In this document: in pieces, positions 10,228-32,000 of the stretch
Position numbering within the stretch: the stretch's first letter is position 1
How the letters are laid out: every line of letters starts with the position of its first letter
Source of the DNA: Nostoc sp. PCC 7120 = FACHB-418
GTDB lineage: Bacteria > Cyanobacteriota > Cyanobacteriia > Cyanobacteriales > Nostocaceae
Direction of reading: 5' to 3'
Assembly (NCBI RefSeq): GCF_000009705.1
Contig: NC_003240.1
Coordinates: 120,001 to 152,000 of the forward strand
DNA length: 32,000 bases
Program-made: the position numbers and the translations under genes
Notes under the pieces: model-generated
The model's input: only the letters and a program-made list of their open reading frames with translations
The model's database searches: none
What the model was told of the DNA's origin: nothing

Positions 10228-10275
10228 ATTTTGTTCAATTAATGTTCAATTAAATTACACCAAGGTTGAGTTCAA

Positions 10276-11961: not shown

Positions 11962-12083
11962 CGCTATCAGAAATCCTTAAGTATGAGGGCAAAGGAAGGC
12001 GATCGGGTATTTATATTTGGTAAAAAAAGCTAGCTTTTTTTAGGAGATTTTTCTGCACCTCATTCTCAGTCTTTCATCTCAAA

Positions 12084-12101
12084 ATGAAATTGGCATGAAA
12101 T
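12084..12101. promoter_or_regulatory. Direct repeat ATGAAAT-N4-ATGAAAT upstream of the RND operon
   Basis: ATGAAAT at 12084-12090 and 12095-12101, about 125 bp upstream of the adaptor start. On the minus strand it reads TTTCAT-N5-TTTCAT, then GAGAAT after 16 nt. A third, inverted half-site TTTCAT lies at 12072-12077. Confidence 0.45.
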
Positions 12102-12196
12102 TGAGAACTGAGAAACTAGCTTTCTTTGACATCTAAAATTCTCAATTGCGTCAGCAAACTTTGTACCCGTTTCTAAGTAGAAATTGAAATTTGAGA

Positions 12197-12925: not shown

Positions 12926-12944
12926 CTAAATATTTCCTGATTTC

Positions 12945-12976
12945 ATTTTCAAATATCCAGTTGGCTGGAGAGTCAA
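12945..12976 (-). promoter_or_regulatory. MerR-type promoter, class A operator, driving the CopM-like gene
   Basis: Minus strand: TTGACT-CTCCAGCCAACTGGATATT-TGAAAAT. This is a -35 hexamer, a 19-nt spacer holding the dyad CTCCAG-N4-CTGGAt, then a -10-like element. It lies about 20 bp upstream of the ATG at 12925. Confidence 0.6.
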
Positions 12977-13078
12977 CCCCTTGGGTTATTTATCTTTGGC
13001 TTGGGTAATAAAATTGCCCAGATAACTAGCTATTCACAAAGCAACTGTTGCACTTACTAGATAGTTTGACAGCCAAAA

Positions 13079-13096
13079 ATGAAATCAGGATGAAAT
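13079..13096. promoter_or_regulatory. Direct repeat ATGAAAT-N4-ATGAAAT
   Basis: ATGAAAT at 13079-13085 and 13090-13096, in the divergent intergenic region between the CopM-like gene (-) and the Csp-like gene (+). Confidence 0.45.
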
Positions 13097-13140
13097 CAAA
13101 GGTTGGTGGTAGTCGTACAGATGTAAGAGTACATATCAAC

Positions 13141-13158
13141 ATGAAATCTGCATGAAAT
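13141..13158. promoter_or_regulatory. Direct repeat ATGAAAT-N4-ATGAAAT
   Basis: ATGAAAT at 13141-13147 and 13152-13158, 62 bp from the previous box and about 130 bp upstream of the ATG at 13290. Confidence 0.45.
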
Positions 13159-13289
13159 ACCCATACCTCAGTAGTTAGAAATATTTATTACCTCATTGGT
13201 ATGACGCGATCGCCTTCGCAAATCTTTAAGGTGAGTCTAAAGGCGTTATTGCCTTTGGTAAACCTAAAAAATTTCAAGAGGGTGAATAC

Positions 13290-13658
13290 ATGTCTATACA
13301 AGAACTCACTTTGAGTCAAGTGAACCAGCAGATGCAACAATGTATTCAAAACTGCTTAGACTGCCATAGCATTTGTTTAAATACCGTGACTTACTGCCTA
13401 CAAAAGGGTGGTCATCATGCCAAACCTGCTCATATTCGATTAATGCTTGATTGCGCTGAAATTTGCAATACAAGTGCTAATTTCATGCTTCGAGCTTCTG
13501 ACTTACATTCTCGTACATGCGGCGTTTGTGCTGAACTGTGTCAACGGTGTGCAGATGAGTGCGATGCTTACGGTGACGATGCTCAAATGAAAGCCTGCGC
13601 TCAGATGTGCCGTCGATGCGCGGATTCTTGCCGACAAATGGCAATGGCAACTGCATAA
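13290..13658 (+). CDS. Cys-rich four-helix-bundle copper-storage-type protein (Csp/DUF326-like); no signal peptide
   Basis: 122 aa with 16 Cys, mostly in CxxxC / CxxC heptad-like spacing: CIQNCLDCHSIC, CAEIC, CGVCAELCQRCADEC, CAQMCRRCADSC. There is no N-terminal hydrophobic leader. Confidence 0.8.
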   Translation: MSIQELTLSQVNQQMQQCIQNCLDCHSICLNTVTYCLQKGGHHAKPAHIRLMLDCAEICNTSANFMLRASDLHSRTCGVCAELCQRCADECDAYGDDAQMKACAQMCRRCADSCRQMAMATA

Positions 13659-13882
13659 GTCATCGTAAAAGCTAGCTGGCTGCCGTGTAGTATTTGCCGC
13701 AAACTGTGCTTAAAAATGCGGCAGTCAGCAAAGATAACCTTAGCACTGCAAACAGTAACTTCAGACTGATGCTGCTGGTATTCATAGCAATTTTATCGCA
13801 TATTCACCATCTAAATCTCTAAGTGTAAGCACTCACAAAGCTGCATCTAATATGTGCTTAAAAAAATTCTTCAGATGGCCTC

Positions 13883-13914
13883 TTGACTCTCCAGTGAACT
13901 GGAGCATTCAAGAT
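13883..13914 (+). promoter_or_regulatory. MerR-type promoter, class A operator, driving the ATPase operon
   Basis: TTGACT-CTCCAGTGAACTGGAGCAT-TCAAGAT. The dyad CTCCAG-N4-CTGGAG is perfect and the spacer is 19-20 bp. It lies 50 bp upstream of the ATG at 13964. Confidence 0.65.
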
Positions 13915-13963
13915 GAAATCAGTTAGTTATTAGTTAACGCTATTTAGTAACTGGAGCAGTCAG

Positions 13964-16225
13964 ATGGAGAATACCACACTCAAACTGCGTGGCATGAGTT
14001 GTGCCTCTTGTGCCAGCAGCATTGAAGACGCGATTAATTCTGTCCCTGGTGTTAATGAATGTATCGTGAATTTTGGAGCAGAACAGGCAACAATTGAGTA
14101 TGACCCCAGAAGAACTGATTTAGAAGCCATTCAAGAGGCGGTAGATGCAGCAGGTTATTCTGCCTATCCACTCCAAAAACAAAACCTGATGGCGGGAGAC
14201 GATGATGCAGAGAAAAGACATCGCTTAAGAGAATCCCGCGATTTAATGCGAAAGGTGGCGGTAGGAGGCATCATTAGCACTGTGTTAGTTATAGGTTCAT
14301 TGCCTATGATGACAGGGTTGCACTTACCCTTTATCCCAGTATGGCTGCATAATCCTTGGGTACAGTTGATACTCACTACCCCAGTCCAGTTCTGGTGTGG
14401 TTACTCCTTCTACATTAATGGATGGAAAGCCTTAAAACGTCATGCTGCCACAATGGATACCCTAATCGCTTTGGGTACAAGTGCGGCGTATTTTTATTCG
14501 CTATTTCCCACTTTATTCCCCAGCTTTTTTATCAATCAGGGGTTAACGCCAGATGTATATTATGAAACTGCTGCGGTCGTTATTACCCTAATTCTGCTAG
14601 GAAGACTATTTGAAAATCGCGCTAAAGGACAAACTTCAGAAGCTATCCGTAAGCTGATTGGGTTACAAGCTAAAACAGCGCGTTTGATTCGCAATGGACG
14701 AGAAGTAGATGTGCCAATCGAAGAAGTACAGATTGGTGATGTGATACTGGTTCGTCCTGGTGAGAAAATTCCCGTTGATGGCGAAGTAGTTGACGGGACA
14801 TCGACAATTGATGAAGGGATGGTAACAGGGGAAAGCGTGCCTGTCAAAAAGCAACCAGGCGATGAAGTGATTGGAGCTACTATTAACAAAACTGGGAGTT
14901 TTAAGTTTCGGGCAACACGAGTCGGAAGTGATACTGTGCTGGCGCAGATTGTCCAATTAGTACAGCAAGCACAGGGTTCTAAAGCCCCAATTCAGAGATT
15001 AGCAGACCAAGTAACTGGATGGTTTGTACCTGCGGTAATTGCGATCGCACTGCTCACTTTCATCATTTGGTTTAATTTTACAGGTAACGTGACTTTGGCA
15101 CTGATTACCACTGTTGGGGTACTAATTATCGCCTGTCCTTGTGCGCTGGGTTTAGCCACACCGACATCTGTAATGGTAGGAACGGGTAAAGGTGCAGAAA
15201 ATGGCATTTTGATTAAAGGTGCTGAAAGCTTGGAACTGGCGCACAAAATTCAAACAATCGTGCTGGACAAAACTGGAACCATCACTCAGGGTAAACCAAC
15301 AGTCACCGATTTTGTCACCGTCAACGGTACTGCTAATGGTAACGAAATCAGGTTGGTGCAACTTGCGGCATCTGTAGAACGCAATTCCGAACATCCATTG
15401 GCAGAAGCGGTTGTCAGATACGCCCAATCTCAAGAAGTGACGTTAGCAGATGTCAAGGAGTTTGAAGCTGTAGCAGGTAGTGGTGTGCAAGGTATAGTTT
15501 CTGATTCTCTCGTGCAAATTGGAACGCAACGCTGGATGTCAGAATTAGGCATTGACACCCAAGCCTTGCAACAGGATAAAGAGCGTTTGGAATATCTGGG
15601 TAAAACTGCAATTTGGATTGCGGTTGACAGACAAATTCAGGGATTAATGGGGATTTCTGATGCCATCAAACCTACCTCCATACAAGCAATTAGTGCTTTG
15701 CAAAAACTGGGTTTAGAGGTGGTGATGCTCACAGGTGATAATCGCCGCACCGCCGAAACCATTGCCCGTGAAGTTGGTATCAAGCGTGTTTTGGCAGAAG
15801 TTCGGCCCGACCAAAAAGCCGCTACAGTGCAGAAACTACAATCAGAAGGAAAGATTGTAGCAATGGTTGGAGATGGTATCAATGATGCACCAGCACTAGC
15901 TCAAGCCGATGTCGGAATGGCAATTGGCACTGGTACAGATGTAGCGATCGCCGCGAGTGACATCACGCTTATCTCCGGTGACTTGCGAAGCATTGTCACA
16001 GCCATTCAACTCAGCCGCGCCACAATTCGTAACATTCGTCAAAACCTATTCTTCGCCTTCATCTACAACGTTGCTGGCATTCCGATTGCTGCGGGTATTT
16101 TGTTCCCCATCTTCGGTTGGTTACTTAACCCCATTATTGCAGGTGCAGCAATGGCATTTAGTTCGGTTTCAGTGGTTACGAATGCCCTACGTCTGCGTAA
16201 ATTTCAAGCTAAACCAGTAGCATAA
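13964..16225 (+). CDS. Cu(I)-translocating P1B-1-type ATPase
   Basis: 753 aa. N-terminal HMA domain [10 protein letters not shown], then [25 protein letters not shown] and GDGINDAP. The Cu(I) signatures are N-x6-YN-x4-P ([14 protein letters not shown]) and P-x6-M-x2-SS-x5-N ([18 protein letters not shown]). Confidence 0.95.
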
Positions 16226-16236
16226 GGAGGTAGCAA

Positions 16237-17148
16237 ATGTTGAGTAAAATAATTCTTAGCAGTATAGCAGGCTTGGGATTGGCATTCAGTGTTGCCTCAA
16301 ATAAAGTAAAAGTAGTTGCACAGATGAATCATCAAATGCCAGCTACCGAGAGATCGCAGACAACTCAGTTCCGCCGCATTGAGCAACCACTGTGGGTAAA
16401 AGGTGCAGTTACAACAGTCGGCTTGGGGTTAATCGGACTAGAAATCTGGTGGTTTCTCCTCAGTAAACCAAAGTCTCAAAAAGCCGAAGCCCGTGATGGT
16501 ATTCAAGAAGTTGGCATTACTGTAGATGGAGGCTATGAACCTAGTCGAATTCTAGTCAATGCAGGTCAAAGAGTCCGCCTTAATTTCCTACGTCGCGATC
16601 CTAGTAGTTGTCTTGAAGAAATACGCCTACCTGATTTCCATATTGCCAAAAACCTACCACTCAACGAAGTTACACCCATTGAGTTCACATCCGACAAACC
16701 AGGTACTTATACCTTCAACTGCGGTATGAATATGTTCCGAGGAGTTATAGAAGTTCAACCTACTGACTCGACTGCAAAAGCAACCTCAGTAACTACTTCT
16801 CAATCTACTCACCAGATTCAACCAGAGCTTTCTTTGCCTACAGAGTCAGCAACAAAAGCAGTGAAAACACCAGAAGGTACTCAAGAAGCGACTATTACGG
16901 TTGAAAAGGGTTACAAACCGGAACGAGTAATTGTAGAGGTGGGACAACCAGTGAGATTGGATTTCCAACGTCACAATCTGAGCAAGTGCTTTGATAAATT
17001 GCTAATACCAGACTTTGACTTAGCTGTTAACCTTGCTCCTAACCAAACCACTTCAGTGGAATTTACACCTAAGTATCCTGGTGAATATCAGTTCACTTGC
17101 GGTATGAAAATGTATCGTGGTGTTGTGGAAGTAAAGCCTGCCACATAA
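16237..17148 (+). CDS. Membrane-anchored protein with two cupredoxin-like domains
   Basis: 303 aa with a signal/TM segment. Two paralogous units are ITVDGGYEPSRILVNAGQRVRLNF...SSC...FNCGMNMFRGVIEVQP and ITVEKGYKPERVIVEVGQPVRLDF...SKC...FTCGMKMYRGVVEVKP. The start is 12 bp after the ATPase stop, with a GGAGG upstream. Confidence 0.8.
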   Translation: MLSKIILSSIAGLGLAFSVASNKVKVVAQMNHQMPATERSQTTQFRRIEQPLWVKGAVTTVGLGLIGLEIWWFLLSKPKSQKAEARDGIQEVGITVDGGYEPSRILVNAGQRVRLNFLRRDPSSCLEEIRLPDFHIAKNLPLNEVTPIEFTSDKPGTYTFNCGMNMFRGVIEVQPTDSTAKATSVTTSQSTHQIQPELSLPTESATKAVKTPEGTQEATITVEKGYKPERVIVEVGQPVRLDFQRHNLSKCFDKLLIPDFDLAVNLAPNQTTSVEFTPKYPGEYQFTCGMKMYRGVVEVKPAT

Positions 17149-17187
17149 TCCAGTAGCAAATAATTAGCAAGATGATCCTGTTCTCAC

Positions 17188-17219
17188 TTGACTCTCCAGC
17201 TAACTGGAGAGTTTAAGAT
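17188..17219 (+). promoter_or_regulatory. MerR-type promoter, class A operator, in front of the MerR-family gene itself
   Basis: TTGACT-CTCCAGCTAACTGGAGAGT-TTAAGAT. The dyad arms extend to 9 bp (GACTCTCCAG/CTGGAGAGTt). It lies 39 bp upstream of the ATG at 17258. Confidence 0.65.
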
Positions 17220-17257
17220 AAGGTAAATAAACTTATTTAACATGAGAGCAGCTAAAT

Positions 17258-17671
17258 ATGCTAGTCCAAGAAGAGCCAAAACTCATTGGTAATGTTGCCA
17301 AGTCTAGCGGTGTACCTATTAAAACTATTCGCTACTATGAAGAACTTGGTCTACTCAAATCATCAGCAAGAACAGAAGGCGGATTTAGATTATTTAACTC
17401 TGATGTTTTGGAGCGACTGCACTTTATTAAACGCGCTCAAAGCTTAGGATTAAGCTTGTCAGAAATTAAGGAATTTTTAAATGTTCATGATGGAGGGGAA
17501 TTACCTTGTGAGCATATAAAAATTAAACTAGAAGATAAGATTAAAGCTATTGATGAACAAATTCATCAATTACTGATTTTGAGACAAGAATTATCAGGAT
17601 TAGTTTCTGGTTGGGAAACCATACCTGAAAATCCTGAAAAAACAATTTGTCCTATTATTGAAAGAAATTAA
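17258..17671 (+). CDS. MerR-family heavy-metal-responsive transcriptional regulator (CueR/HmrR-like)
   Basis: 137 aa. HTH region IGNVAKSSGVPIKTIRYYEELGLL...GFRLF, then RLHFIKRAQSLGLSLSEIKEFL, a dimerisation helix and candidate ligand residues (LPCEH, TICP). Confidence 0.9.
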   Translation: MLVQEEPKLIGNVAKSSGVPIKTIRYYEELGLLKSSARTEGGFRLFNSDVLERLHFIKRAQSLGLSLSEIKEFLNVHDGGELPCEHIKIKLEDKIKAIDEQIHQLLILRQELSGLVSGWETIPENPEKTICPIIERN

Positions 17672-17698
17672 ACAATCAAGCTGTTCATTTATTTTTTT

Positions 17699-17738
17699 AT
17701 CAGTATATCAACGCATTAAGCTAAGTTGATGTACTGAT
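17699..17738 (+). terminator. Hairpin terminator after the MerR-family gene
   Basis: atcagtatatcaac / gttgatgtactgat form a 14-bp stem with 1 mismatch and a 12-nt loop, followed by ttcttatt. Confidence 0.5.
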
Positions 17739-17793
17739 TTCTTATTGAGAGAAATCAATTGATAAAGAAATTAGTTATTTTTAATTTTACCTA

Positions 17794-17825
17794 TTGACTC
17801 TCCCGTAAGCTGGAGAAATTAAACT
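17794..17825 (+). promoter_or_regulatory. MerR-type promoter, class A operator (degenerate), driving the CopZ-like operon
   Basis: TTGACT-CTCCCGTAAGCTGGAGAAA-TTAAACT, about 80 bp upstream of the ATG at 17907. Confidence 0.6.
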
Positions 17826-17906
17826 AATTTTAGTCGAGTAGATTAAGCGTATATCTATTCAACGATTTTCAGAAAATTAGTTATCCTCAGTAAGAAATTT
17901 AACACT

Positions 17907-18101
17907 ATGACGCTGCAACTAACAGTTCCCAAACTCGCTTGCTCTGCTTGCGCGAATACTATCACGAAAGCAATTCAATCAATTGATTCTACAGCCACAG
18001 TGCAAGCTGATCCAAAAACAAAACTTGTCAGTATAGAAACTCAAGCACCTGAGACTAAGATTAAAGAAGTAATAGCTGCTATAGGCTATCCATCTGTTTA
18101 G
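17907..18101 (+). CDS. Heavy-metal-associated (HMA) domain metallochaperone, CopZ-like
   Basis: 64 aa with a beta-alpha-beta-beta-alpha-beta length and the CxxC motif (KLACSACANTITKAI). Confidence 0.85.
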   Translation: MTLQLTVPKLACSACANTITKAIQSIDSTATVQADPKTKLVSIETQAPETKIKEVIAAIGYPSV

Positions 18102-18207
18102 GTTTTTGAGTTTATTCTACTATCAGTAGTTAGCATTGGATGAACTGCTGATAGTCAAATATTCCTTTCAGAAAAGTCCTTCTGCTTTTAGAAGAGAGGT
18201 GACTTAT

Positions 18208-18402
18208 ATGAGTTTACTTTTTCTGATTCCACTGACGATTGGTTTAGCAGTTAGTTATTTGTTTAAAAATTCTACTGATGACATAGCAGAATTAACAAGT
18301 TTATCTACAGTTGCTTGCTTAATTGTCAGTTTAATATTAGCACCTTGGCAACTAAAAGTTGTGGTTCTAATGCTTGCCATATTAACTCCCCAGACGAATT
18401 GA
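18208..18402 (+). CDS. Small two-TM membrane protein (hypothetical)
   Basis: The track ORF is 18136..18402. The internal ATG at 18208 is preceded by gaagagagg and gives MSLLFLIPLTIGLAVSYLF... with a second hydrophobic helix. No recognisable family. Confidence 0.35.
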   Translation: MSLLFLIPLTIGLAVSYLFKNSTDDIAELTSLSTVACLIVSLILAPWQLKVVVLMLAILTPQTN

Positions 18403-18445
18403 GACTTTTGAATAACTTCAATCATTAAAAAATGGAGCAAAATCA

Positions 18446-19324
18446 ATGAATAGATTTCTGAATACAATTGCTATCACTACTACTTTGATACTAATTCAAA
18501 GTTGCTCTTTATTAATTAGAGACAAAGGAAAACCAATATCTGCTGCCACAGATCAGCATGAAGAACATTCTATGGGTAATATAAATCACAGGGAACATTC
18601 AACAAGTGGCATAGGTGATGGGAAGAAAGCATTTACCCAGGCAAAACTTAAAGTCCCAAGCATTATTACCCCTAATAAAAATATTCCGATAGTAATTGGT
18701 GTTCAAGATTCGGATGGGAAAGCAGTCAAAAACTTTGATACTTTCCAAGAAAAGCTCATGCACCTCATCCTTGTCAGTGATGATCTTCAGTTTTTTAGTC
18801 ATCTTCATCCCACATATAAAGAAAATGGGCAGTTTGAAGTTGCAGCCCGTTTTCCGAAAGCAGGCAATTACACATTTTTTAGTGACTACAAACCTGCTGG
18901 TCAAACAGAACAAATCTCAGTGTTGAAAACACAAGTTCCTGGAAACAGTATTGCAGCCCCAGAAATTAACCTAAATCGCAGTAAAACGTTCAATGATATT
19001 AAAGTCAATCTTGCTGTTTCTGAACCTACTGTGAAAGCGGGTAAAGAAGTCAGCTTAATGTTGAAATTACAAGATGCTTCTAATAATCAACCGCTTACAG
19101 ACTTGCAGCCATACTTAGGAGAAAAAGGCCATTTAGTTATCCTGCGACAGTCAACCTCATTAACAGCAGCAGATTACATCCATGCTCACGCACTAAAAGA
19201 TGCTCCTGCTGGACAAGTTCATTTTATGACTAACTTTCCGCAACCAGGAAAGTATAAGCTTTGGGGTCAGTTTAATCGCAATGGCAAAATCATCACTGCT
19301 GATTTTTGGATCGATGCTGTTTAA
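18446..19324 (+). CDS. Lipoprotein with two paralogous beta-rich His-motif domains; putative periplasmic metal-binding protein of unknown family
   Basis: 292 aa. Lipobox LIQSC and a His-rich linker (HEEHSMGNINHREH). Unit 1 is HLILVSDDLQFFSHLHP...GQFEVAARFPKAGNYTFFSDYKP. Unit 2 is HLVILRQST...YIHAHAL...GQVHFMTNFPQPGKYKLWGQFN. Confidence 0.7.
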   Translation: MNRFLNTIAITTTLILIQSCSLLIRDKGKPISAATDQHEEHSMGNINHREHSTSGIGDGKKAFTQAKLKVPSIITPNKNIPIVIGVQDSDGKAVKNFDTFQEKLMHLILVSDDLQFFSHLHPTYKENGQFEVAARFPKAGNYTFFSDYKPAGQTEQISVLKTQVPGNSIAAPEINLNRSKTFNDIKVNLAVSEPTVKAGKEVSLMLKLQDASNNQPLTDLQPYLGEKGHLVILRQSTSLTAADYIHAHALKDAPAGQVHFMTNFPQPGKYKLWGQFNRNGKIITADFWIDAV

Positions 19325-21381: not shown

Positions 21382-22626
21382 TCAAACATTCTCGTTTACA
21401 GCAATAAAGGTACTAGGCCGCTCACAAGGAGTAAAGTTATACTTACGTTTGACTTCTTCACCTGTATTATTTGTATTACCTTCAACAGATTTAGTTAGCG
21501 GTACAACCTCAGAGCGTATGTAACCAGTCAACTTATCAAACTGAATAATCATGTGCTGGTGGAAAGCCCAAACATCCGCCATCCGATTGTCCATACCAGA
21601 AGATATTTCATCAGGTATAAAAATATTACCGTGCCAGGATACTTTAATCCCCTCTTTCTGGAAGTAAGCATCTATTTCTGGACGAATGTAATCCGCAGTT
21701 CCTCCGCAGAATACCAGTTCTTCAATGTCCTCATCCATCTTTGATCGCAACCACCTAGCGATCGCACGCCAATATTCGTCTCTAGCAAGCAATAAAGTCT
21801 TGGACATCGACTCGCCATCAAGTTGAATCTCATCGTCTTTGCGCTTGCGTGAAAGTTTCTGTATCACCAAGGGGTCACAACTAACTCCAGCTTCTACCAA
21901 CACTTGGATAACATTGGGGTTATCAGAGCTTAGTCCCGATGTCTTGGAAATAAAATTACTCACTAACCAAGACATACCAAAATTGCTGGTTATTCCTGTG
22001 CCAATTGAACCACTCCGAAAAGTGAAAATACTTGCGTTACGATAACCAAGCATCACATACATCGAAACAGGTACACGATCGCCAAGCGTTCGCCTACGGT
22101 GGAAAAATATTCCGCTACCTTCAGAAGCTGCATCATAACGAAGCATTTTCACCCGCATCTTACCTGCTGGTGTATCAAACCCCCGAAACGTATCCTTCAA
22201 CCGAACCTGTAACTGTTCCTTGTCTTGCACTTCACCCGGCGGCAGCAGGACACTCAAGTAAGCTGCAACATCATTACCCAGGTTCAACTTCTCCTTAGCC
22301 AGCCAAAATGCTCCGCAAATTTTGGGGATTGCCAATTCGTACTTTAGCTCCTTCAGTTGCGATATACCCCCAAACCGACGACGAGCAAGTTCTCCCAAGG
22401 CGAAATACTCATTGCCTATCCCTACCCAAGCACGAGATTCAGGACTACCTTCAGGTTGGACGCTTTCAACTGAGGCTTTAGCAACATCCGCTATTTCTGA
22501 GTCTAAAAGTAAAACAACTGGCTTTCCTTCTGGATACTCCTGAACGATAGCCTTGGTTTTACTTGCACCCATATCAATCGTAATTACTATCTTTTTTACG
22601 TCTATTTTCTCCTTAGTTTTGGGCAT
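21382..22626 (-). CDS. Actin-fold plasmid-segregation ATPase (ParM/StbA/Alp-like)
   Basis: 414 aa. Phosphate-1 motif VITIDMGASKTKAIV, a central VMLGYRNASIFTF (phosphate-2-like) and an adenosine motif LVFCGGTADYIRPEI. Confidence 0.8.
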   Translation of the reverse strand: MPKTKEKIDVKKIVITIDMGASKTKAIVQEYPEGKPVVLLLDSEIADVAKASVESVQPEGSPESRAWVGIGNEYFALGELARRRFGGISQLKELKYELAIPKICGAFWLAKEKLNLGNDVAAYLSVLLPPGEVQDKEQLQVRLKDTFRGFDTPAGKMRVKMLRYDAASEGSGIFFHRRRTLGDRVPVSMYVMLGYRNASIFTFRSGSIGTGITSNFGMSWLVSNFISKTSGLSSDNPNVIQVLVEAGVSCDPLVIQKLSRKRKDDEIQLDGESMSKTLLLARDEYWRAIARWLRSKMDEDIEELVFCGGTADYIRPEIDAYFQKEGIKVSWHGNIFIPDEISSGMDNRMADVWAFHQHMIIQFDKLTGYIRSEVVPLTKSVEGNTNNTGEEVKRKYNFTPCERPSTFIAVNENV

Positions 22627-23381: not shown

Positions 23382-23984
23382 TCATTCCAGACGAAATCCT
23401 GCATCAACTTCTATTTCTGCCTTGACAATTGGGTCATCCTCGTCATCATTAAAGAACCCATCATCTTCAGAATCTTCTTCCAAAATATTTGATCCGGCTG
23501 GTTCTGAGGTAACAGGTAACGAGACAGGACTTGGCTCAGTGGAATCAAAAAAAGAAACCGAAGGGGAAACCAAATTAGCTGAAACAGAAGTGATTCCCAC
23601 TCCATTAGTTCCAGATGTTGGTTGTAACCCAATTGCACCCTGCGAAAAAACTCCACTATGAGGATTAACAAGAACTACTTGGGGCAACCCCTCCATCCCA
23701 AACGTCCGTTTCATCTTAATTATCTGGGCTTCAAGTTGCGCGATCGCATCATAGAGGGCTGAGTTCAATTCCATACCAGATACTCCGGCAGTCGATAGTG
23801 CAAACGGTAGGTAATACGCCCGCAGCGCCTCACATACTAGCTCAGTTTGCCCTCGCTTCTTCGACTGGAGATAGCTAATCACTATCCCATCTTCTGTATC
23901 CTTATTCCGCATGATTCGCGCCAACTCAACCGAATCAGTAGGCTTACTCGCTCTTGCCATAATATCTCTTCTATTAACGTGCAA
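23382..23984 (-). CDS. Hypothetical protein with a strongly acidic C-terminal tail; candidate DNA-binding partition adaptor or regulator
   Basis: 200 aa. A likelier start is MARASKPT (nt 23960). The N-terminal part is helical, there is a Ser/Pro/Gly-rich linker, and the tail is EEDSEDDGFFNDDEDDPIVKAEIEVD. Same strand as, and upstream of, the ParM-like gene. Confidence 0.6.
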   Translation of the reverse strand: MHVNRRDIMARASKPTDSVELARIMRNKDTEDGIVISYLQSKKRGQTELVCEALRAYYLPFALSTAGVSGMELNSALYDAIAQLEAQIIKMKRTFGMEGLPQVVLVNPHSGVFSQGAIGLQPTSGTNGVGITSVSANLVSPSVSFFDSTEPSPVSLPVTSEPAGSNILEEDSEDDGFFNDDEDDPIVKAEIEVDAGFRLE

Positions 23985-24619: not shown

Positions 24620-24773
24620 TACGGCTTCAGTGCCAATGACAACAAGAACTATAAGATACTAAATTTGTATCCACATCACAAGTTACAGTACTCTCACTGA
24701 CGGCATCTTACTTCAGTGTAATTTATACCAAAAATAGCAAAAGTATTATCCGCACTTGAAGCCGTACACGGCT
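24620..24773 (+). other. Candidate oriT region
   Basis: Long-range inverted repeat tacggcttcagtgc (24620-24633) / gcacttgaagccgta (24752-24766), plus a local hairpin agccgt-ac-acggct (24760-24773). It lies immediately upstream of the MobC-like/relaxase genes. The nic site is not identifiable by eye. Confidence 0.35.
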
Positions 24774-24839
24774 GTCAGATTTCTCGCTATCCACCGATAC
24801 CGCAGTACAGTCTCCAACTATGACATTTACGCCGAAACA

Positions 24840-25208
24840 ATGAAACAAGGTATGATAAATGACCCCGTAAAGCGAACTAAATCAATCAAGGTATACCTCT
24901 TTGAGGAAGAAAAAACTACCATTGAGGAAAAAGCCAACGCTACAGGAGTCACTGCATCTGAGTACTTACGTTCCTGTGGGTTAAGACGGGTACTAACGAC
25001 AAAACCGCCCACCGACTTGATAACTATCCGCGCTACTGCTGGAAACCTTAAAAGCGAACTGATGATGTTATCTCACTTAGCGAAGGAAACAAACAATCAG
25101 CAAATTTTGGATACTGTTAATAAGGCGATCGCACTCGTAGATCAGACTATCGCAGCTGCATTTAACCTAAACGTTCCAGACAAATCACCCTCAAGCCAAG
25201 AGACATAA
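24840..25208 (+). CDS. MobC-like ribbon-helix-helix relaxosome accessory protein
   Basis: The track ORF starts at TTG 24756. The ATG at 24840 (MKQGMINDPVKR) is more plausible. KSIKVYLFEEEKTTIEEKANATGVTASEYLRSCGLRR matches the MobC-family pattern (R/K...i.v.l...E...i...A...g.S.SeYlR). Confidence 0.75.
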   Translation: MKQGMINDPVKRTKSIKVYLFEEEKTTIEEKANATGVTASEYLRSCGLRRVLTTKPPTDLITIRATAGNLKSELMMLSHLAKETNNQQILDTVNKAIALVDQTIAAAFNLNVPDKSPSSQET

Positions 25209-25250: not shown

Positions 25251-26756
25251 TTGATTCCCGTTATCTACAAAAAACCCAATTTTCTCGACACGCTCAAGTA
25301 TGTCTTGGGGAAAGATGATGCTGCGATTGTCGATACTAATATGATGGGAACAAAGCCAGATGAATTCAACCAGCAATTTCTCACCATCAAGTACACCAAC
25401 AAAGCAGTTAAACGGCAGTGCGCTCACCTCATCATCTCAATAGCACATCGCCCGAACTACCACGAGCATTTATCTGATAGTCAGTACAGTTATGTAGCAA
25501 GAGAATATCTCAAGGATATGGGATACTTGCCCAAGGAAGAATCATCTGTAGCAGCTACCAGTCAGTTCGTTGCAGTACGCCACCACGATCGCAACCACGA
25601 ACACCTGCATATAATCGTCGCCCGGATTCGGTTAGATGGCAGCTTAGTTAATGATTCCTATGATTATTTCAACTCCCAAGTCTCAACTAGACGCATCGCG
25701 GCGGAACTGGGATTAGAAGTAACTCCGACAACAAATGAAGCTGTCGCTTCTAAGTTAGAGCAAGAGTACGGAATAATTACACTCACCAGCCCCAACCGAT
25801 CAAAAAGCATTAGAGCAGTCAACAGTAAGCACAAAACCCCAACAAGTAAGGAAATTATTCGCCAAGCAATAGGAGAAGCCATTAAGGACAGTCCCACCGT
25901 CTCTACGTTTATTCAACGCCTGGAGGAAAATAACATTGGAGTATTGCCTAAGATGCAGGGGGAAGAACTACTAGGCTTTACCTACATTCATAATGATGTC
26001 AAAATTGCTGGTTATCAAGTATACAAACCTTATAGCTGGAACAAACTGCGGTCTGAATATGGAATCACGTACGACCCATATAAAGATAAAGAAGTAATTC
26101 AACAAGCTAAAGCCAAAGCAATTGCTCGCATAAATAGCATAATTTTAAGTAATAATGATTACTTATATAGTGATAAACCTACTAATAGCAGTACAAGTGA
26201 TAGTAATAGTGATACTGATAGTAACTCTAAAAAACTTGTTACTACATATACACTAAATAGTAATTATCTCAGTGAGATTTCGATAATACAACCAAAATCA
26301 GAAGATAACCTCACTTCGGAAGCAAATAAGACCAAGAAAAAAGTTCAGCCGCATCCAAAGAAACAGCACCCACAACAGGATATTTCAGAAGAAAACGGTC
26401 TTACTGCTAAACAATTCCTGGAAGAGCAATCTTCCCCTGTTCCTCCTTCTCTTAACCTTCTGCCTTCTACTCTCAAACATTTGCCTTCTATAATCACTGA
26501 CTATATGCTTGTTACCAATAACTTCCGTATCAAAGGACGGGAGTTGAGTGCCAGTTTACATAGCAATACTCTGAGTGTTTACCGTCATGGAGATAATACT
26601 CCTGTGATGCAAACCTGCTACAGTCAGAGAACCTGGTACGAAGAGATACCAACTCGACTAACAACAAACGAAATTGAGCAGATTGAAAGTTTGCGTTTCT
26701 TTACGCAACAAGTATTAATGAATAAACAGCGATCGCAAAGAGGTATTGAGCAGTAG
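25251..26756 (+). CDS. Mobilisation relaxase (MobA/VirD2 family)
   Basis: 501 aa with a TTG start. The N-terminus is MIPVIYKKPNFLDTLKYVLGKDD (catalytic Tyr region). The His-triad motif is VRHHDRNHEHLHIIVARI. A Ser/Asn/Asp low-complexity linker (NSSTSDSNSDTDSNS) and a roughly 170-aa C-terminal region of unknown function follow. Confidence 0.9.
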   Translation: MIPVIYKKPNFLDTLKYVLGKDDAAIVDTNMMGTKPDEFNQQFLTIKYTNKAVKRQCAHLIISIAHRPNYHEHLSDSQYSYVAREYLKDMGYLPKEESSVAATSQFVAVRHHDRNHEHLHIIVARIRLDGSLVNDSYDYFNSQVSTRRIAAELGLEVTPTTNEAVASKLEQEYGIITLTSPNRSKSIRAVNSKHKTPTSKEIIRQAIGEAIKDSPTVSTFIQRLEENNIGVLPKMQGEELLGFTYIHNDVKIAGYQVYKPYSWNKLRSEYGITYDPYKDKEVIQQAKAKAIARINSIILSNNDYLYSDKPTNSSTSDSNSDTDSNSKKLVTTYTLNSNYLSEISIIQPKSEDNLTSEANKTKKKVQPHPKKQHPQQDISEENGLTAKQFLEEQSSPVPPSLNLLPSTLKHLPSIITDYMLVTNNFRIKGRELSASLHSNTLSVYRHGDNTPVMQTCYSQRTWYEEIPTRLTTNEIEQIESLRFFTQQVLMNKQRSQRGIEQ

Positions 26757-26814
26757 TAAATTTGCTAGTAGAGAGAATTTAATCTACTGAGAATTCCTAT
26801 TGTTGATATATGAA

Positions 26815-26846
26815 ATACGAAGTGTTCAAATTTGAATACTTCGTAT
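26815..26846. terminator. 32-nt palindrome between convergent genes (bidirectional terminator candidate)
   Basis: atacgaagtgttcaaa/tttgaatacttcgtat has 16-bp arms with 1 mismatch. It lies between the relaxase stop (26756) and the methyltransferase stop (26950). Confidence 0.5.
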
Positions 26847-26949
26847 AAAGCATTAATACATCTAGGTTATAGCTAGAACAGAGGGCGACCCTAAAATTTT
26901 GGCTTAAGCTGTAAGTATTTGTTAGATGGCATTCATTTTTGACAGTTGG

Positions 26950-27525
26950 TCATGGGGCGATCGCCAATGCACAAAAATCGCGATCCGTCTCGACTAGGCG
27001 CGCTTGAGTGAAACCAGCAGTCGTAAGTATCTGAGTCAATCCAGTACTTGATTGCCCTGAATAAGAAGTAAAACCAAGTGCTATTTGACCACCAACCTTC
27101 ATAACTCGCCGCACTTCCCGCAGCCCAACTAAGGCATCTGGCCAGACTTGCATAGAGTTAACCGCCAGCACTTTATCGAATTTGTTGTCTTCAAAGGGCA
27201 AACTTTCCACCGAACCTTGCCGTAAATCAACCAGACCCATCTCAATCTCTGCCATGTTTCTAGCTGTAGCTTGCTCAACCATTTCTTGAGAGTAATCGAT
27301 GCCTGCGATATATCCTGCTGATGCTAAAGAGGATAAACGCTGAATACCCACTCCTGAGCCGAATCCAACTTCCAACACTTGGTCATTTGGCTGAATATCG
27401 AGTAGGTCGATCACCGAATAGGTAAACGCTTGGTTCATGGATGCCATAATCATGCCACCCAACCTACCTAGCATACCCTTCGGGCGACCAAACATCTGCA
27501 TGAATATACTGTCTACAATGCTCAT
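26950..27525 (-). CDS. Class I SAM-dependent methyltransferase
   Basis: 191 aa. Motif I VLEVGFGSGVG, then GIDYSQEM and FDKVLAVNSMQVWPD. Confidence 0.8.
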   Translation of the reverse strand: MSIVDSIFMQMFGRPKGMLGRLGGMIMASMNQAFTYSVIDLLDIQPNDQVLEVGFGSGVGIQRLSSLASAGYIAGIDYSQEMVEQATARNMAEIEMGLVDLRQGSVESLPFEDNKFDKVLAVNSMQVWPDALVGLREVRRVMKVGGQIALGFTSYSGQSSTGLTQILTTAGFTQARLVETDRDFCALAIAP

Positions 27526-27919
27526 CAGTGTTAATCGCCTCCCTACTGTGATGCCTCTATGCTATCTAGTATTGAGTTTTTAACACATTGTCATTCTGCT
27601 TAAAACTACAAACACAACCATAATCACAAACATTACAAAAGTTACTACGGATTTATAACTAAGTAAAAAGGAGCCAATAAGTTTGTATATTTTTTGTCAT
27701 ACTTAAACTTTGAGATCACGCTGAATAAGTATTTATCAATAAAAAGCTAAGTAAAATTTTTATAAAATTGTATTTTAAAATACCCATAAATTGCTAGTCT
27801 AAATTAGAAATATGTTGAATAGATTACTGATAAAGAGACAGTAAAATTAAACTCTACGGATACTTTAGTGCCAAAAAGTGAAAATTTATCTTTAATTTTA
27901 TAAGTTTAATTGTTCATAT

Positions 27920-30900
27920 ATGACAATTCAAGCTAAACATTTTGACACTAGATTAAATCAATGGATTCATACAGATGGTAATACAAATAATCCAGATTCG
28001 CTGTTAAAAGAAGAACTTAATAATACTCTACTAGAACATTTCTTTCCTGGGGTAAACTTTTCGTTCGGGCATATGGACGAAAAGTCTACTGTGGAACAAT
28101 TAATTAATCATCCTGAAGGTCATAAATTATTATTATCGTCAAAAACTCGGTTGTTATATGGCCCCGAAGAATGTCTAGATACAATTAGGCAATTATGCCC
28201 TGATAACAAAGATAGAGGTGCTTACGGGTCTATCTTTCTTGGTTCATGTAGAAATGCTGTCAATAAAGAGTTAAACATCCTAATAGTTGATGATCATAAT
28301 GGTGAAAATGGCGGCGTTATTAGTAACGACCAGGCGTATCGGCTAACAGGAGACTGTTACGGACAAATATCAAAAGACTTGTATCACGAATTAACCAAGC
28401 ATCAAAAAGGTGATAAATATCGAGTAATTCAGCACCGCTTCGGTTGGACTGAACGAGACGGAGATGATAATAAATACCGTTTTGGTAAAGGTACATTACG
28501 CCCTGCTAACCTTGAGCAAATCCTCAATTATCAAAACTCGAATAACTCAACTAAAATTGACCTAATTCTTCCCTTATCTGCGTTCAAGGGAACTGATAAA
28601 GATAATCCTAATAGCCCGACTAAGCCTCAAATTAAACCTGGATTGTACCGACAAAATATCTGGCTAGGTGAAAAATCACAATCTGAACTCGGCAAGACAG
28701 CTATCTCACAGTTACTCGCTTCATTCCCTAACGGACTGAAAGACTTTACTGAACAGCTAGAACTTGAGGCCAAAAAGCTTAAGGAAGCACAGGACGACCC
28801 TCGGCAACTTGCACAACTTTACTGCGAAAAGTACGAGAAGCGGAAAGCTTTTTTAGAAGAACAAGCAACCACACTAGAAGAACAAGCAGCAGAAGATCCA
28901 ACAGTAGCAGAAGAGTTAGAAACTTTGCGATCGCGCATTGCTACTGACTCGTTTATTTACAAACTCATCAAAGCTGACCTGCAAGGAGAAGGGCAACTTC
29001 TCGAAACTGAGAAAGTACAGCGCGAACTTGCCCGGTTCGTCCAAAACGAGTGGAAAGAAATCGCCATCGGCAAGACGTTAACGTTTGAGCGAGCAATGGT
29101 CATTCCCTCCAAAGACCTGCAAAATGGGGAAATTTCCATACCGCATTATCAAGACGGAGAAGAAGTTCTCAACTTCCGCTCCCCTTTCCTCAACTCAAAT
29201 GGTCTGTGCGTCTCAACTAACAAAATTGTAGAAGATATCCTTGGTCCTGATGGCCAACCTCTCGCTGGTGCGATCGCTGTATCGGACGAAACAAGCGATC
29301 GCATTTACAACCGCCTCAATGAGCAAATTAAATCTATCCTGCCAGAAGCTCAAGGAAAAAATCTTCAATTAGAAGGTATTGAAAATTACTTAGACCAAAA
29401 TATTAGTAAGCTCGAAACTAGAGATAAAATCGAGTTTACTAACAAATTTAACCAGTATATTTTAGAACTAAAATCAGTTGGTTATAAATTAGAGATTCTC
29501 CCTCAAGAGTCCGAACAAGAGCGTCAAGCACGCGACTACGATGGTGATTGTATCGGCTTCGAGCGGGCAACCAAGTATCCTAACCTCACCACCGAAGCAA
29601 AGGAGCGTAACCTTCCTGAAAACGCCTACGCTCCAACTGTCAAACTTAAAAAACAATCTTTTTACCAAGAAGATGGCAGTCAGCCAGAATTTGAGGAAAT
29701 CGCCATCCACATGAGCGATGGCATTAGTGTGGGTGTTATCAACAATCACCTTACCGCAATTGAGGCGTTAGAGTCAGAAATTACGATTCTAAAAAATTTT
29801 GTTAGCGAGAAAGACTCAATTGAGTACGTACAGCAGGTAGCCAAACATTACGAAGATTTATTCAAAACAGAAGTCTGGGCAAAATCCAAGGGTATTGAAG
29901 GGAAGGAGATTCCAAGCAAGTATCGCAGTTACATGGAAGAGTTCATCAAAACCGTTCGACAAGAACCCACCAATACACTAGTAGCGATGAATATTAATAC
30001 CCAAATGTACCGTGAAATGATTGCCGAAGCAGCATTTCAAAATCAAATTGCAGTTGACCTTTTCAAGAGTGCCAAAAAACCTGAAATTGAAATTATTCGC
30101 AACAACAGTCGGATTCTTCACCGTGAAGTCAACTATATTAAGGATAAGAAGAAAGATGTCTATATTGACAATACAATTCAACCGACAGGATATTCTCCTG
30201 TTGAATTACTAATTGCTCAAACCAATCAGTATTTTGAAAAAGCTCGCCTCGAATCGCGTGAAATCGTTCAATTTCAAGCTTTATTTGAAGAGGTTGAATT
30301 TTCTAACGAACAGCGATTAAAAGCTACCCTCATCAAAAAAGAATTCGACAAATCATTCAACCGAGCAAGTGAGCTATCTAAACAAAAAGAAACTGAAAAA
30401 GGGCCATCTGTAAAAATTACCCTTGCTAATGGTAATCAAGTAAGTATAACTAATCTTCTACAGTATGATAATGAATTTATCTGGAAAGCTAATACAATTA
30501 CGATAAAACTATCAGAAATATCCGAAGATAAGCGCAATAATAACCGTCCGCATAAATATTTAGTTTATGCTCAAATTAACGATGAAACTGAGAATGGTAA
30601 ACCCAAGTTTAGAAAATTAGGGACACTGGCGAGGGAGCAAGAAAATAAACTCGAAGAGATAGTAATTACACTTGGGGAGGAAGTAAAATCTAACAAAATA
30701 TCATTCCAACCTGAACTAAGCGAAGGTCAAATTAAACTTCTTTACCAAAAAGCTTACCAGATAGCAGAGGAATTTTATAATTCGCTCCCAGAAGACCAAA
30801 AGCTAACAATGGCAGCTGCCACCTGGACGGTATCCACTACTCGTGAGAGTAATAATGATAAAAGTAGCGATCGCCAAAATAAAGTTTCTAATTTCGCCTT

Positions 30901-32000
30901 TGCTGCCTTTCCTCAAGAGATTATCAGTCAGTTAGATACACTCAAGTTTACCGAGTTTAGTATCACTGGGTTTGACCGGAATAGTGAGTTTTTTAATGAA
31001 AATCAACCTCAGAGTATTCGATTTAATCTAGCTGAAGATGGAAAAAGCGTAATTGAAATCCAGAATCAAGAGGGTAATTACGAATCATTCGGAAATATTG
31101 AACAAAGTAACGCCCGGCTACCAATTGGTACTATTGCTATTGGCAGTATTGAAAAAGGTGAAGTATACACCACCTCTGTTACAACCAAAGTACCTGGACT
31201 ACCAGAACTAACTTTCAAAGTAGGCGAAGTTAATAAGTTTGGAAATTCCCAAAGGTTTAATAATGAACCTGTAATGTTAACAATCGAAAAGGTTGACCTG
31301 ATTCGGGAAGACTATACTATCTATCTTCAAAATGGCAATAAACCTGAAAAACTAGGCAATATTGATAAAGAATCAATCAAAGAAGGTATTACCCAAGGCT
31401 GGCTAGCAGAAAAGCCTGGGAATGGGCAACAGTTACATCTTAAAATTCAAACTATCATCACTGGACAAAATGCCTATGCTATAGCAGAGACATCTCAGAG
31501 CAATCTGTTACGAATTAATATTACGAATCCAAAATACAAGAAACAGGAGATTAACAACCAAGCATTTCAAGAAACTTTAGTTCGTGCATTTGATAAAAAG
31601 CACATTTATATTGCTAAAATTGGCGACCAATCACTCGGTATTATTGGTCAGCATAATGAACGTCTTGAAGCTGATTTAAATAAAGGAAATATACAAAAAC
31701 AGTGGCAAAGGAAAGAAACTAGCACTGTACAAAAATTAATTGATGCAGGTATTATTCGCCCAAACCAACAACGAACCACTATCCCTGTACAGATTACCAG
31801 TAATGAAAGTACTTGTAAAATAATAATTGATCCAGAAACAGTACAATATCCCGACAAATGGGTTAAACGCAGTCAGCTTATAAGTAATGAAAAGCCTGTC
31901 AGAGACGAGCAGCAAGAAAAACGCAACCAAATACTCGATAAAATTAACGAACGCCCTACAATCATGTTCCAAGATAAAGAGCAAAAATTAGTAGGGCTTT
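27920..32000 (+). CDS. Very large protein (>1360 aa, 3' end outside the window) with an N-terminal RdRP-like / two-double-psi-beta-barrel polymerase-like region
   Basis: Absent from the track. ATG at 27920 with an in-frame TAA at 27893 upstream. I translated the whole frame by hand and found no stop up to 32000. All track ORFs in this span are short and antisense or out of frame. Motifs in order: GDCYGQIS, RVIQHRFGW...YRFGKGTLRP, EVLNFRSPFLNSNG, RDYDGDCIGF. The CDS call is secure; the functional call is motif-based inference. Confidence 0.8.
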   Translation, partial: MTIQAKHFDTRLNQWIHTDGNTNNPDSLLKEELNNTLLEHFFPGVNFSFGHMDEKSTVEQLINHPEGHKLLLSSKTRLLYGPEECLDTIRQLCPDNKDRGAYGSIFLGSCRNAVNKELNILIVDDHNGENGGVISNDQAYRLTGDCYGQISKDLYHELTKHQKGDKYRVIQHRFGWTERDGDDNKYRFGKGTLRPANLEQILNYQNSNNSTKIDLILPLSAFKGTDKDNPNSPTKPQIKPGLYRQNIWLGEKSQSELGKTAISQLLASFPNGLKDFTEQLELEAKKLKEAQDDPRQLAQLYCEKYEKRKAFLEEQATTLEEQAAEDPTVAEELETLRSRIATDSFIYKLIKADLQGEGQLLETEKVQRELARFVQNEWKEIAIGKTLTFERAMVIPSKDLQNGEISIPHYQDGEEVLNFRSPFLNSNGLCVSTNKIVEDILGPDGQPLAGAIAVSDETSDRIYNRLNEQIKSILPEAQGKNLQLEGIENYLDQNISKLETRDKIEFTNKFNQYILELKSVGYKLEILPQESEQERQARDYDGDCIGFERATKYPNLTTEAKERNLPENAYAPTVKLKKQSFYQEDGSQPEFEEIAIHMSDGISVGVINNHLTAIEALESEITILKNFVSEKDSIEYVQQVAKHYEDLFKTEVWAKSKGIEGKEIPSKYRSYMEEFIKTVRQEPTNTLVAMNINTQMYREMIAEAAFQNQIAVDLFKSAKKPEIEIIRNNSRILHREVNYIKDKKKDVYIDNTIQPTGYSPVELLIAQTNQYFEKARLESREIVQFQALFEEVEFSNEQRLKATLIKKEFDKSFNRASELSKQKETEKGPSVKITLANGNQVSITNLLQYDNEFIWKANTITIKLSEISEDKRNNNRPHKYLVYAQINDETENGKPKFRKLGTLAREQENKLEEIVITLGEEVKSNKISFQPELSEGQIKLLYQKAYQIAEEFYNSLPEDQKLTMAAATWTVSTTRESNNDKSSDRQNKVSNFAFAAFPQEIISQLDTLKFTEFSITGFDRNSEFFNENQPQSIRFNLAEDGKSVIEIQNQEGNYESFGNIEQSNARLPIGTIAIGSIEKGEVYTTSVTTKVPGLPELTFKVGEVNKFGNSQRFNNEPVMLTIEKVDLIREDYTIYLQNGNKPEKLGNIDKESIKEGITQGWLAEKPGNGQQLHLKIQTIITGQNAYAIAETSQSNLLRINITNPKYKKQEINNQAFQETLVRAFDKKHIYIAKIGDQSLGIIGQHNERLEADLNKGNIQKQWQRKETSTVQKLIDAGIIRPNQQRTTIPVQITSNESTCKIIIDPETVQYPDKWVKRSQLISNEKPVRDEQQEKRNQILDKINERPTIMFQDKEQKLVGL

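Follow-up and report, generated by a model that had tools for sequence, protein, structure and literature searches.

A giant gene downstream of the relaxase in Nostocales conjugative plasmids encodes a predicted two-barrel polymerase module joined to a shuffled C-terminus

The 32,000-nt stretch of Nostoc sp. PCC 7120 = FACHB-418 DNA analyzed here (contig NC_003240.1, positions 120,001 to 152,000 of the forward strand; the whole stretch is hereafter called the window) ends inside a giant gene, which starts on the + strand at ATG 27920, downstream of a relaxase gene, and whose product we consider as a putative polymerase of conjugative plasmids. From this ATG to the window end at 32000 the frame translates as 1360 codons without a stop, a run with a probability of ~2e-42 at 38% GC, and the closest in-frame stop on its 5′ side is at 27893-27895, 8 codons upstream, so that ATG 27920 is the first possible start. 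The frame is absent from the mechanical list of open reading frames (ORFs) because it runs past the window end; a first-pass annotation of the letters alone had picked it out, and translation bears this out. In plasmids of 95-96% identity, the full gene measures 7746 nt and encodes 2581 amino acids (aa) annotated as a “hypothetical protein” (orthologue WP_011316719.1); the window holds the first 1360 of ~2581 codons (27920..32000, +), and the part beyond the polymerase module, which the first-pass annotation had put at more than 750 aa, is actually ~1700 aa long. An N-terminus of the form M-x-[IL]-x-x-K-HFDTRL opens the gene in 79/80 related loci (counts out of 80 refer throughout to the best 80 of 269 loci from a scan of species-representative genomes), and the ratio of nonsynonymous to synonymous substitutions (dN/dS) against five orthologues, 95-96% identical, is 0.11-0.17 for aa 1-860 and 0.16-0.24 for aa 861-1360. 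The giant frame is a real gene under purifying selection.

Structurally, the N-terminus of the giant protein is very probably a two-barrel polymerase homologue, to judge from an AlphaFold2 model of aa 1-860 built on a 34-sequence alignment (predicted local distance difference test, pLDDT, 87.8; predicted template-modeling score, pTM, 0.81). Foldseek searches of the PDB with this model returned as the top six matches four entries of QDE-1 and two of RDR2 (E 8e-8 to 7e-7, probability 1.0, 870-980 aligned columns), followed by Pol IV NRPD1, Pol II Rpb1, and bacterial beta′, and the best match in BFVD was a phage protein annotated as RNA-dependent RNA polymerase (RdRP; E 2.7e-11), with crAss-like phage proteins ranking lower; a match to two-barrel polymerases was the structural outcome that the first-pass annotation had anticipated. 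The predicted strands form two six-stranded barrels, giving the module an overall fold with two double-psi beta-barrel (DPBB) domains that would face a shared active site. The first, beta-subunit-like barrel (aa 112-254; 28253..28681, +), assigned from the strand pattern and the Foldseek matches to QDE-1/RDR2, bears D145 (nt 28352-28354), Q171/R173, and K190-G191 (nt 28487-28492). A helical linker or insert in the predicted secondary structure (aa 263-383; 28706..29068, +), part of it charged and a lower-confidence coiled coil, with pLDDT falling to 55-70 around aa 310-340, joins it to the second, beta′-like barrel (aa 388-549; 29081..29566, +; strands and Foldseek). This second barrel holds NFRSPF (R420, nt 29177-29179; P422, nt 29183-29185) and the predicted Mg-binding DYDGD (nt 29534-29548), which strand order and Foldseek alignments place on a DPBB loop, and between R-x-P and DYDGD the model has a helical hairpin insert peculiar to the family (aa 459-535, nt 29294-29524). 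After the catalytic loop comes a predicted helical domain (aa 554-825; 29579..30394, +), where NQIAVDLFKS (nt 30041-30070) is strongly conserved (K716 in 205/205 and D713 in 198/205 sequences).

The motifs on which the first-pass annotation had built its proposal were all recovered where it had placed them: YGSIFLGSCRNAV (aa 102-114), GDCYGQIS (nt 28349-28372), RVIQHRFGW...GKGTLRP (aa 168-195), IDLILPLSAFKG (aa 213-224), GEEVLNFRSPFLNSNG (aa 413-428), and ARDYDGDCIGFE (aa 537-548; D539/D541/D543 = nt 29534-29548). The charged insert that it had estimated at about 110 aa before the DYDGD motif measures 108 aa from GEEVLNFRSPFLNSNG to ARDYDGDCIGFE. PMC2919709 names eight residues as invariant in all two-barrel RNA polymerases (RNAPs): three aspartates in DxDxD, an Asp plus two basic residues contributed by the other barrel, and the Arg and Pro of R-x-P. 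All eight have collinear counterparts in the giant protein that are 94-100% conserved among 259 relatives: D145 (195/197), R173 (203/204), K190 (210/210), R420 (229/229), P422 (227/227), D539 (205/218), D541 (207/217), and D543 (208/216). Conservation of K190, R420, and the Asp triad among homologues was one of the checks that the first-pass annotation had proposed; R187, part of one motif in the first-pass annotation, is less conserved (154/198). By motif order, R173 would be equivalent to QDE-1 R738. In T-G144-D145-C the first-barrel Asp is not preceded by an acidic residue, a feature shared with RdRPs and YonO, and the RdRP/YonO class is marked by precisely this absence of a fifth carboxylate (the Rpb2 E836 equivalent; PMC2919709); both barrels, moreover, lie in one chain encoded by a single ORF. 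On the evidence of model and residues, aa 1-860 would make up a nucleotide polymerase with two barrels in a single chain, competent for catalysis and belonging to the RdRP/YonO class.

The region that follows, aa 861-1360 (30500..31999, +), is homologous in 75/80 loci, down to ~30% identity, and has invariant RPH, AAATW, and KKVSNFAFAAF as well as a YP..W.K motif; it gave no PDB or Pfam match and no detectable relative beyond the family, and self-BLAST found no internal repeat in it. With this region so widely shared, aa 1-1360 in the window represent the conserved core of the family. Beyond the window, the C-terminal half of the full-length orthologue had no Pfam match, and the AlphaFold2 model of its last 943 aa is poor (pLDDT 57). 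The thirteen best PDB matches of that model are all AlkB-family dioxygenases (E 0.03-0.3, probability up to 0.98), and HxD...H...RxxxNxW-like motifs in the C-terminal sequence fit the same assignment, so that we tentatively propose an AlkB-like domain there. The orthologue also aligns with NADAR-positive relatives over SAEHAF...RGG..WLENC...ALSEAY motifs, and its putative NADAR and SLOG modules are assigned by alignment with Pfam-positive relatives plus motifs. In relatives, the C-terminal modules comprise, in various combinations, cpYpsA and YAcAr SLOG, NADAR (E 2.9e-46), DUF4326, RNase H, superfamily 1 (SF1) helicase, and DUF488, with an RNase H module in at least four family members.

Fusions occur on the N-terminal side as well. 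A 1304-aa member from Prochloraceae (P0098) has a PrimPol domain (aa 73-212) and PriCT-2 (aa 277-346) N-terminal to the polymerase module and is the sole PrimPol fusion; a 1743-aa member (P0150) carries an N-terminally fused RNase H-like RVT_3 domain (aa 20-85), and several others have N-terminal extensions of 200-400 aa without a Pfam match. This modular, shuffled architecture on a conjugative element is that of “polyvalent proteins” (Iyer et al. 2017): several unrelated enzymatic domains, exchanged among homologues, on a conjugative element and linked to transfer genes. The hallmark polyvalent domains ArdC-N, MPTase, SNF2, and methylase were not found in the giant protein with Pfam, nor was a Toprim or archaeo-eukaryotic primase catalytic domain.

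Evolutionarily, the family is large. An exhaustive profile search retrieved, at E<=1e-3, 367 clusters (50% identity), of which 156 pass E<=1e-30; the longest sequence has 3686 aa, and the best 150 of the 367 clusters are all close family members. Among the best 80 loci, the organism is cyanobacterial wherever named, mostly Nostocales, and every complete record is a plasmid; multiple plasmids of one strain each have their own copy of the giant gene. Family ORFs have a median length of 2581 aa, and 61/71 complete ORFs reach at least 1600 aa. In 47/80 loci a MOBP relaxase is encoded on the same strand no more than 10 kb upstream, and in 13/80 a Mob_Pre relaxase is found within that distance, mostly on the opposite strand, so that 59/80 loci have a relaxase of either family (one has both) across a range of 29-96% identity; a ParM-like homologue is present in 42/80. 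Since the linkage to a relaxase persists through the deepest family splits and involves two relaxase families, the giant gene is tied to the DNA-transfer module and not to cargo.

Two further groups of copies are recorded here. Second-clade copies of 55-58% identity (L005 10001-15014, L006 10001-13012, L007 8443-16247) end at 882-1440 aa, and such short copies are flanked by the transposase genes DDE_3, HTH_28, and DDE_Tnp_1. Scaffold 1 of Hydrococcus rivularis NIES-593, from the order Pleurocapsales, contains a full-length copy (L014 10001-17749), 93-95% identical and with the same block of ParM, NikA, and relaxase, which reflects either a recent plasmid transfer between orders or assembly contamination.

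The replicon itself has a Nostocales plasmid backbone, as the first-pass annotation had recognized in calling it a cyanobacterial one: 14 PLSDB plasmids match the window, 10 of them typed as conjugative, MOBP/MPF_T. The 4.1-kb giant-gene segment is 95-96% identical to nine Nostocales plasmids of 215-300 kb, most of them conjugative, MOBP, and MPF_T, from Microchaete, Tolypothrix, Nostoc, Trichormus variabilis ATCC 29413 (plasmid C), Scytonema, and Aulosira. The window shares synteny with ~26-62 kb of the Tolypothrix PCC 7712 plasmid (NZ_CP063786.1), in the order copper/heavy-metal island, ParM-like gene, NikA-like gene, MOBP relaxase, variable slot, giant gene. Upstream of and co-oriented with the giant gene are its conserved neighbors, the NikA-like accessory gene (24756-25208, +; Pfam NikA-like, 1.2e-14) and the MOBP relaxase (25251-26756, +; Pfam Relaxase, 1.3e-21). 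A partition ATPase of the ParM/StbA type in the same backbone block (21382..22626, −) has a sub-threshold Pfam ALP_N match (E 3e-4) and is annotated ParM/StbA in orthologous plasmids; the partition and mobilization genes reported nearby in the first-pass annotation are thus in place. The 199-aa ORF beside the ParM/StbA-like gene (23382-23984, −) matched no family. Given this and the sub-threshold ATPase match, the partition system of these plasmids is poorly covered by current profiles.

Immediately upstream of the giant gene is an AT-rich conserved 5′ leader or promoter region (27603..27919, +), the collinear blastn block against orthologous plasmids beginning at 27603. In an alignment of 10 upstream regions, TAAAAT at 27852-27857, ~63 nt before the start, is near-invariant in an otherwise drifting leader and is a possible −10 element; no canonical sigma-70 promoter was found on the + strand upstream of the gene, and no canonical −35 lies at sigma-70 spacing from TAAAAT. 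The slot between relaxase and leader (26757-27602) holds Tn7-like genes, a TauE exporter, or small ORFs in related plasmids. In the window this variable cargo slot contains a gene for an S-adenosylmethionine-dependent methyltransferase (26950..27525, −; Pfam Methyltransf_11, 4e-19), which lies outside the conserved unit of the giant gene and whose weak PADLOC “mad2” match probably reflects just a generic methyltransferase fold. A near-perfect palindrome of 32 nt is found at 26815-26846, close to the slot edge. Pfam searches of the conserved flanking small ORFs and an Rfam search of the window returned nothing.

Farther upstream, a copper/heavy-metal resistance island (7102-19324), syntenic with ~32-45 kb of the Tolypothrix PCC 7712 plasmid, encodes an RND pump (7102-10227, −), a membrane-fusion protein (10276-11961, −), a DUF305 protein (12197-12925, −), a DUF326 copper-binding protein (13290-13658), a P-type ATPase with an HMA domain (13964-16225), cupredoxin proteins (16237-17148 and 18446-19324), and a MerR-type regulator (17258-17671). 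Elsewhere, the Tolypothrix plasmid also carries an IscB RNA-guided nuclease, a solo SLOG protein, caspase-family proteins of 1350-1700 aa, and some phage-like genes.

Compared with known systems, the giant protein resembles QDE-1 and RDR2 (PF05183) in having both barrels in a single chain, the same DYDGD loop and R-x-P motif, the same motif order D...(Q-x-R)...K-G...R-x-P...D-x-D-G-D, and a first-barrel Asp without a preceding extra acidic residue. It differs in a ~75-aa helical hairpin between R-x-P and DYDGD (a spacing of 119 versus 45 in QDE-1) and a 12-aa hairpin between Q-x-R and K-G, and in being bacterial and plasmid-borne, with ~1700 further residues fused, no RNA interference (RNAi) partners, and no profile similarity. 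YonO is likewise a bacterial single-chain two-barrel protein on a mobile element with RSP and DxDGD motifs (in its versions ILRSPHLF and FDNDGD), but it is phage-borne and has 839 aa with a C-terminal Cys cluster, whereas the giant protein has 2581 aa and a modular C-terminus and is encoded next to a relaxase on conjugative plasmids. Several YonO relatives, moreover, have precomputed PF05183 matches, whereas 0/119 homologues of the giant protein do.

Among phage proteins, gp66 of crAss-like phages and the P23-45 enzyme share with the giant protein the arrangement of a two-barrel RNAP as one module of a very large mobile-element protein, and crAss-like proteins are among its structural matches, more weakly than QDE-1/RDR2. 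According to bioRxiv 10.1101/2022.12.01.518664, the RNAP of P23-45 occupies the N-terminus of a giant tape-measure protein of 5002 aa and transcribes the pre-early genes. Those virion RNAPs are phage structural proteins injected from capsids, whereas the giant protein belongs to a conjugative plasmid with a type IV secretion system (T4SS) and no virion. The likeness to polyvalent proteins and to the primases TraC1 and Sog (PMC5512222) lies in a very large protein with many domains whose gene follows a relaxase on a conjugative element, a nucleic-acid synthesis module joined to nucleic-acid modification modules, and homologues that shuffle C-terminal enzymatic modules, one of them with PrimPol and PriCT-2.

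Functionally, we infer from the predicted fold and its setting that the giant protein would be of the polyvalent type and contain an RNA polymerase module that is active on DNA templates, and we give a little less than an even chance to its working on plasmid DNA during transfer or establishment. It would be part of the backbone that serves these two processes in large conjugative plasmids, those of filamentous cyanobacteria. The first barrel would contribute D145, R173, and K190, and the second R420, P422, and the Mg-binding D539-Y-D541-G-D543 loop, and RNA would most likely be made on the plasmid’s own DNA, probably on the single strand entering the recipient. The product could provide the primer or R-loop from which the complementary strand is made, the early transcripts, or both, while the C-terminal modules (AlkB-like, NADAR, SLOG, RNase H, SF1 helicase, sometimes PrimPol) may process or protect nucleic acid. 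That RNase H, helicase, and PrimPol recur as partners speaks for DNA as the template and an RNA:DNA hybrid as the product. As for templates and promoters, QDE-1 copies DNA as well as RNA (PMC9508822), and YonO is a promoter-dependent, DNA-dependent RNAP (PMC5467207). The protein may also travel with the DNA, as conjugative primases TraC1 and Sog do (PMC5512222) and as phage virion RNAPs do. A stronger form of this proposal, which we regard as rather doubtful, would make the head of the polyvalent protein the conjugative plasmid’s own two-barrel RNAP, delivered by the T4SS and making RNA on incoming single-stranded DNA (ssDNA), for use as primers, first transcripts, or both, independently of host RNAP and sigma factors; the AlkB-like, NADAR, SLOG, and RNase H modules would then repair or de-modify the incoming strand.

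Several results weigh against a polymerase acting in transfer or establishment. The Foldseek TM-scores of the aa 1-860 model are 0.3-0.44, modest values that are as expected for large, flexible multi-domain proteins. Neither the window product (1360 aa) nor the full-length orthologue matched PF05183 even at E<=1, so the profile comparison suggested by the first-pass annotation came out negative, and Pfam gave for the two only sub-threshold NAPRTase_N, DUF1616, and SUKH_5; NCBIfam and PHROGs searches of the giant protein returned nothing, phmmer and profile hmmsearch against PDB sequences gave only a spurious FliS match (E 0.02), and hhalign of the family profile reached E 0.24 against YonO and E 0.13 (probability 0.4%) against a 20-sequence YonO alignment, the top local alignment landing, at this non-significant E, on the RSP strand of the second barrel. 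A tblastn search of 50,697 phage genomes likewise gave no match. The single-chain two-barrel polymerase of the first-pass annotation is thus borne out by structural match and motif conservation and not by any profile. Given that match and the conserved catalytic residues, together with the missing matches to PF05183 and the YonO profile, we therefore file the giant protein in the two-barrel superfamily, RdRP/YonO class, as a distinct family outside the Pfam RdRP and YonO sequence families.

Further points on the same side concern the catalytic site and the plasmid. About 5% of relatives are substituted in the Asp triad, and ~10/71 complete ORFs are shortened (<1400 aa), several of them beside insertion sequence (IS) transposases, so the giant gene has been repeatedly inactivated in the family, and some hosts, at least, can do without it. 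Within the MOBP clade, its place is on the downstream side of the relaxase and not in an obvious leading region. The syntenic 215-kb Tolypothrix plasmid encodes a stand-alone PrimPol along with its own dnaN, dnaX, holA, ssb, and a 3′-5′ exonuclease protein, and the two-barrel polymerase is therefore not the sole candidate primase; two sigma-70-family factors on the same plasmid show that host-type transcription is also provided for. The separate PrimPol weakens the primer-synthesizing role that the first-pass annotation had allowed for, and on the same ground we rejected the giant protein as a replacement of the conjugative primase.

A resident plasmid transcriptase, which would recognize promoters on double-stranded DNA and transcribe plasmid genes, such as transfer genes, independently of host RNAP and without priming or delivery, much as YonO does for the SPbeta late genes, is an unlikely alternative. 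YonO, the sole characterized bacterial relative, is an enzyme of this kind (PMC5467207), priming is already covered by the plasmid’s PrimPol and replisome genes, and an RNAP of its own would suit a plasmid of hosts as distant as Hydrococcus (Pleurocapsales), with its 93%-identical copy. Conversely, the two sigma factors imply reliance on the host core RNAP, a weak test for repeated words of at least 12 nt as a plasmid-wide promoter found only HIP1, and the fusion partners (RNase H, helicase, PrimPol, AlkB-like, NADAR) process DNA or hybrids and are not transcription factors. The recurrent fusions to RNase H, SF1 helicase, and PrimPol would suit a vegetative replication initiator unrelated to conjugation, in which an origin transcript or R-loop is cut by RNase H or helicase into a leading-strand primer, a mode of priming familiar from ColE1, T7, and mitochondria. 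That each plasmid of a multi-plasmid strain has its own copy, and that the plasmid encodes much of its own replisome, fits this role too, but the gene goes with the relaxase and ParM block, not with the dnaN/dnaX/ParAB block ~110 kb away, and shortened copies persist on apparently maintained replicons, so that we hold vegetative initiation to be improbable.

The closest solved structures, QDE-1 and RDR2, are cellular RdRPs, and PMC2919709 speculated on an RNA-templated role for YonO-like proteins; the giant protein might accordingly be thought to make double-stranded RNA (dsRNA) or antisense RNA for copy-number or antisense control, or to be the core of an RNA-based conflict system. Such RNA templating is, in our estimate, quite improbable, since QDE-1 also takes DNA templates and YonO is DNA-dependent, Dicer, Argonaute, and RNase III partners are neither fused nor conserved nearby, and the fused RNase H targets RNA:DNA hybrids, not dsRNA. 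PADLOC models, too, matched neither the window product nor the C-terminal half, and with no conserved partner genes either, we rejected a defense-system core, the conflict-system role that the first-pass annotation had raised. The loss of Asp from the triad in ~5% of relatives and the lack of any profile match to characterized polymerase families could instead point to a decayed enzyme, with the barrels serving structurally or catalyzing something else (DNA synthesis, as in archaeal PolD, or synthesis of a nucleotide signal). The near-absolute conservation of the catalytic positions over 259 sequences, the low dN/dS of aa 1-860, and the absence of PolD from the structural matches make this very improbable.

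What was already known is the fold class and the existence of cyanobacterial relatives. In 2010, “YonO-like proteins” of cyanobacteria were listed as one of five tentative families (PMC2919709), which may be the giant-protein family, and the mention was repeated in 2017 (PMC5467207); neither paper gives architecture, context, or function, and we found no later description in the literature. The first-pass annotation knew of no characterized cyanobacterial example, but such proteins had already been mentioned. The catalogue of PMC5512222 lists Toprim and PrimPol primases in conjugative elements and, as RNAPs, only N4-type (T7-like) enzymes in phages, with no two-barrel RNAP module, and it describes polyvalent proteins as scarce in cyanobacteria. 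New, it appears, are the family size, the plasmid and relaxase linkage, the giant modular architecture, and the structural proximity to eukaryotic RdRPs; family members are all annotated “hypothetical” and detected by no curated profile.

Single-chain two-barrel RNAPs are the least understood branch of the superfamily that contains all cellular RNAPs, and to our knowledge studies have covered only YonO, a few virion enzymes of phages, and the polymerases of eukaryotic RNAi. A setting beside the relaxase of conjugative plasmids, with fusion to repair and de-modification modules, is undescribed for two-barrel enzymes. If the giant protein is merely a plasmid transcriptase, it would still provide the first non-phage context of a YonO-class enzyme. 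If it is an RNAP delivered by the T4SS, it would be a conjugative counterpart of the phage virion RNAPs and a bacterial enzyme structurally closer to the eukaryotic RNAi polymerases than any yet characterized. Finally, if it acts on transferred DNA, these plasmids would have a third solution, besides Toprim and PrimPol primases, for restarting synthesis in a new host, which would offer a tractable bacterial model of QDE-1-type RNA synthesis on ssDNA templates and would be relevant to engineering gene transfer into filamentous cyanobacteria.

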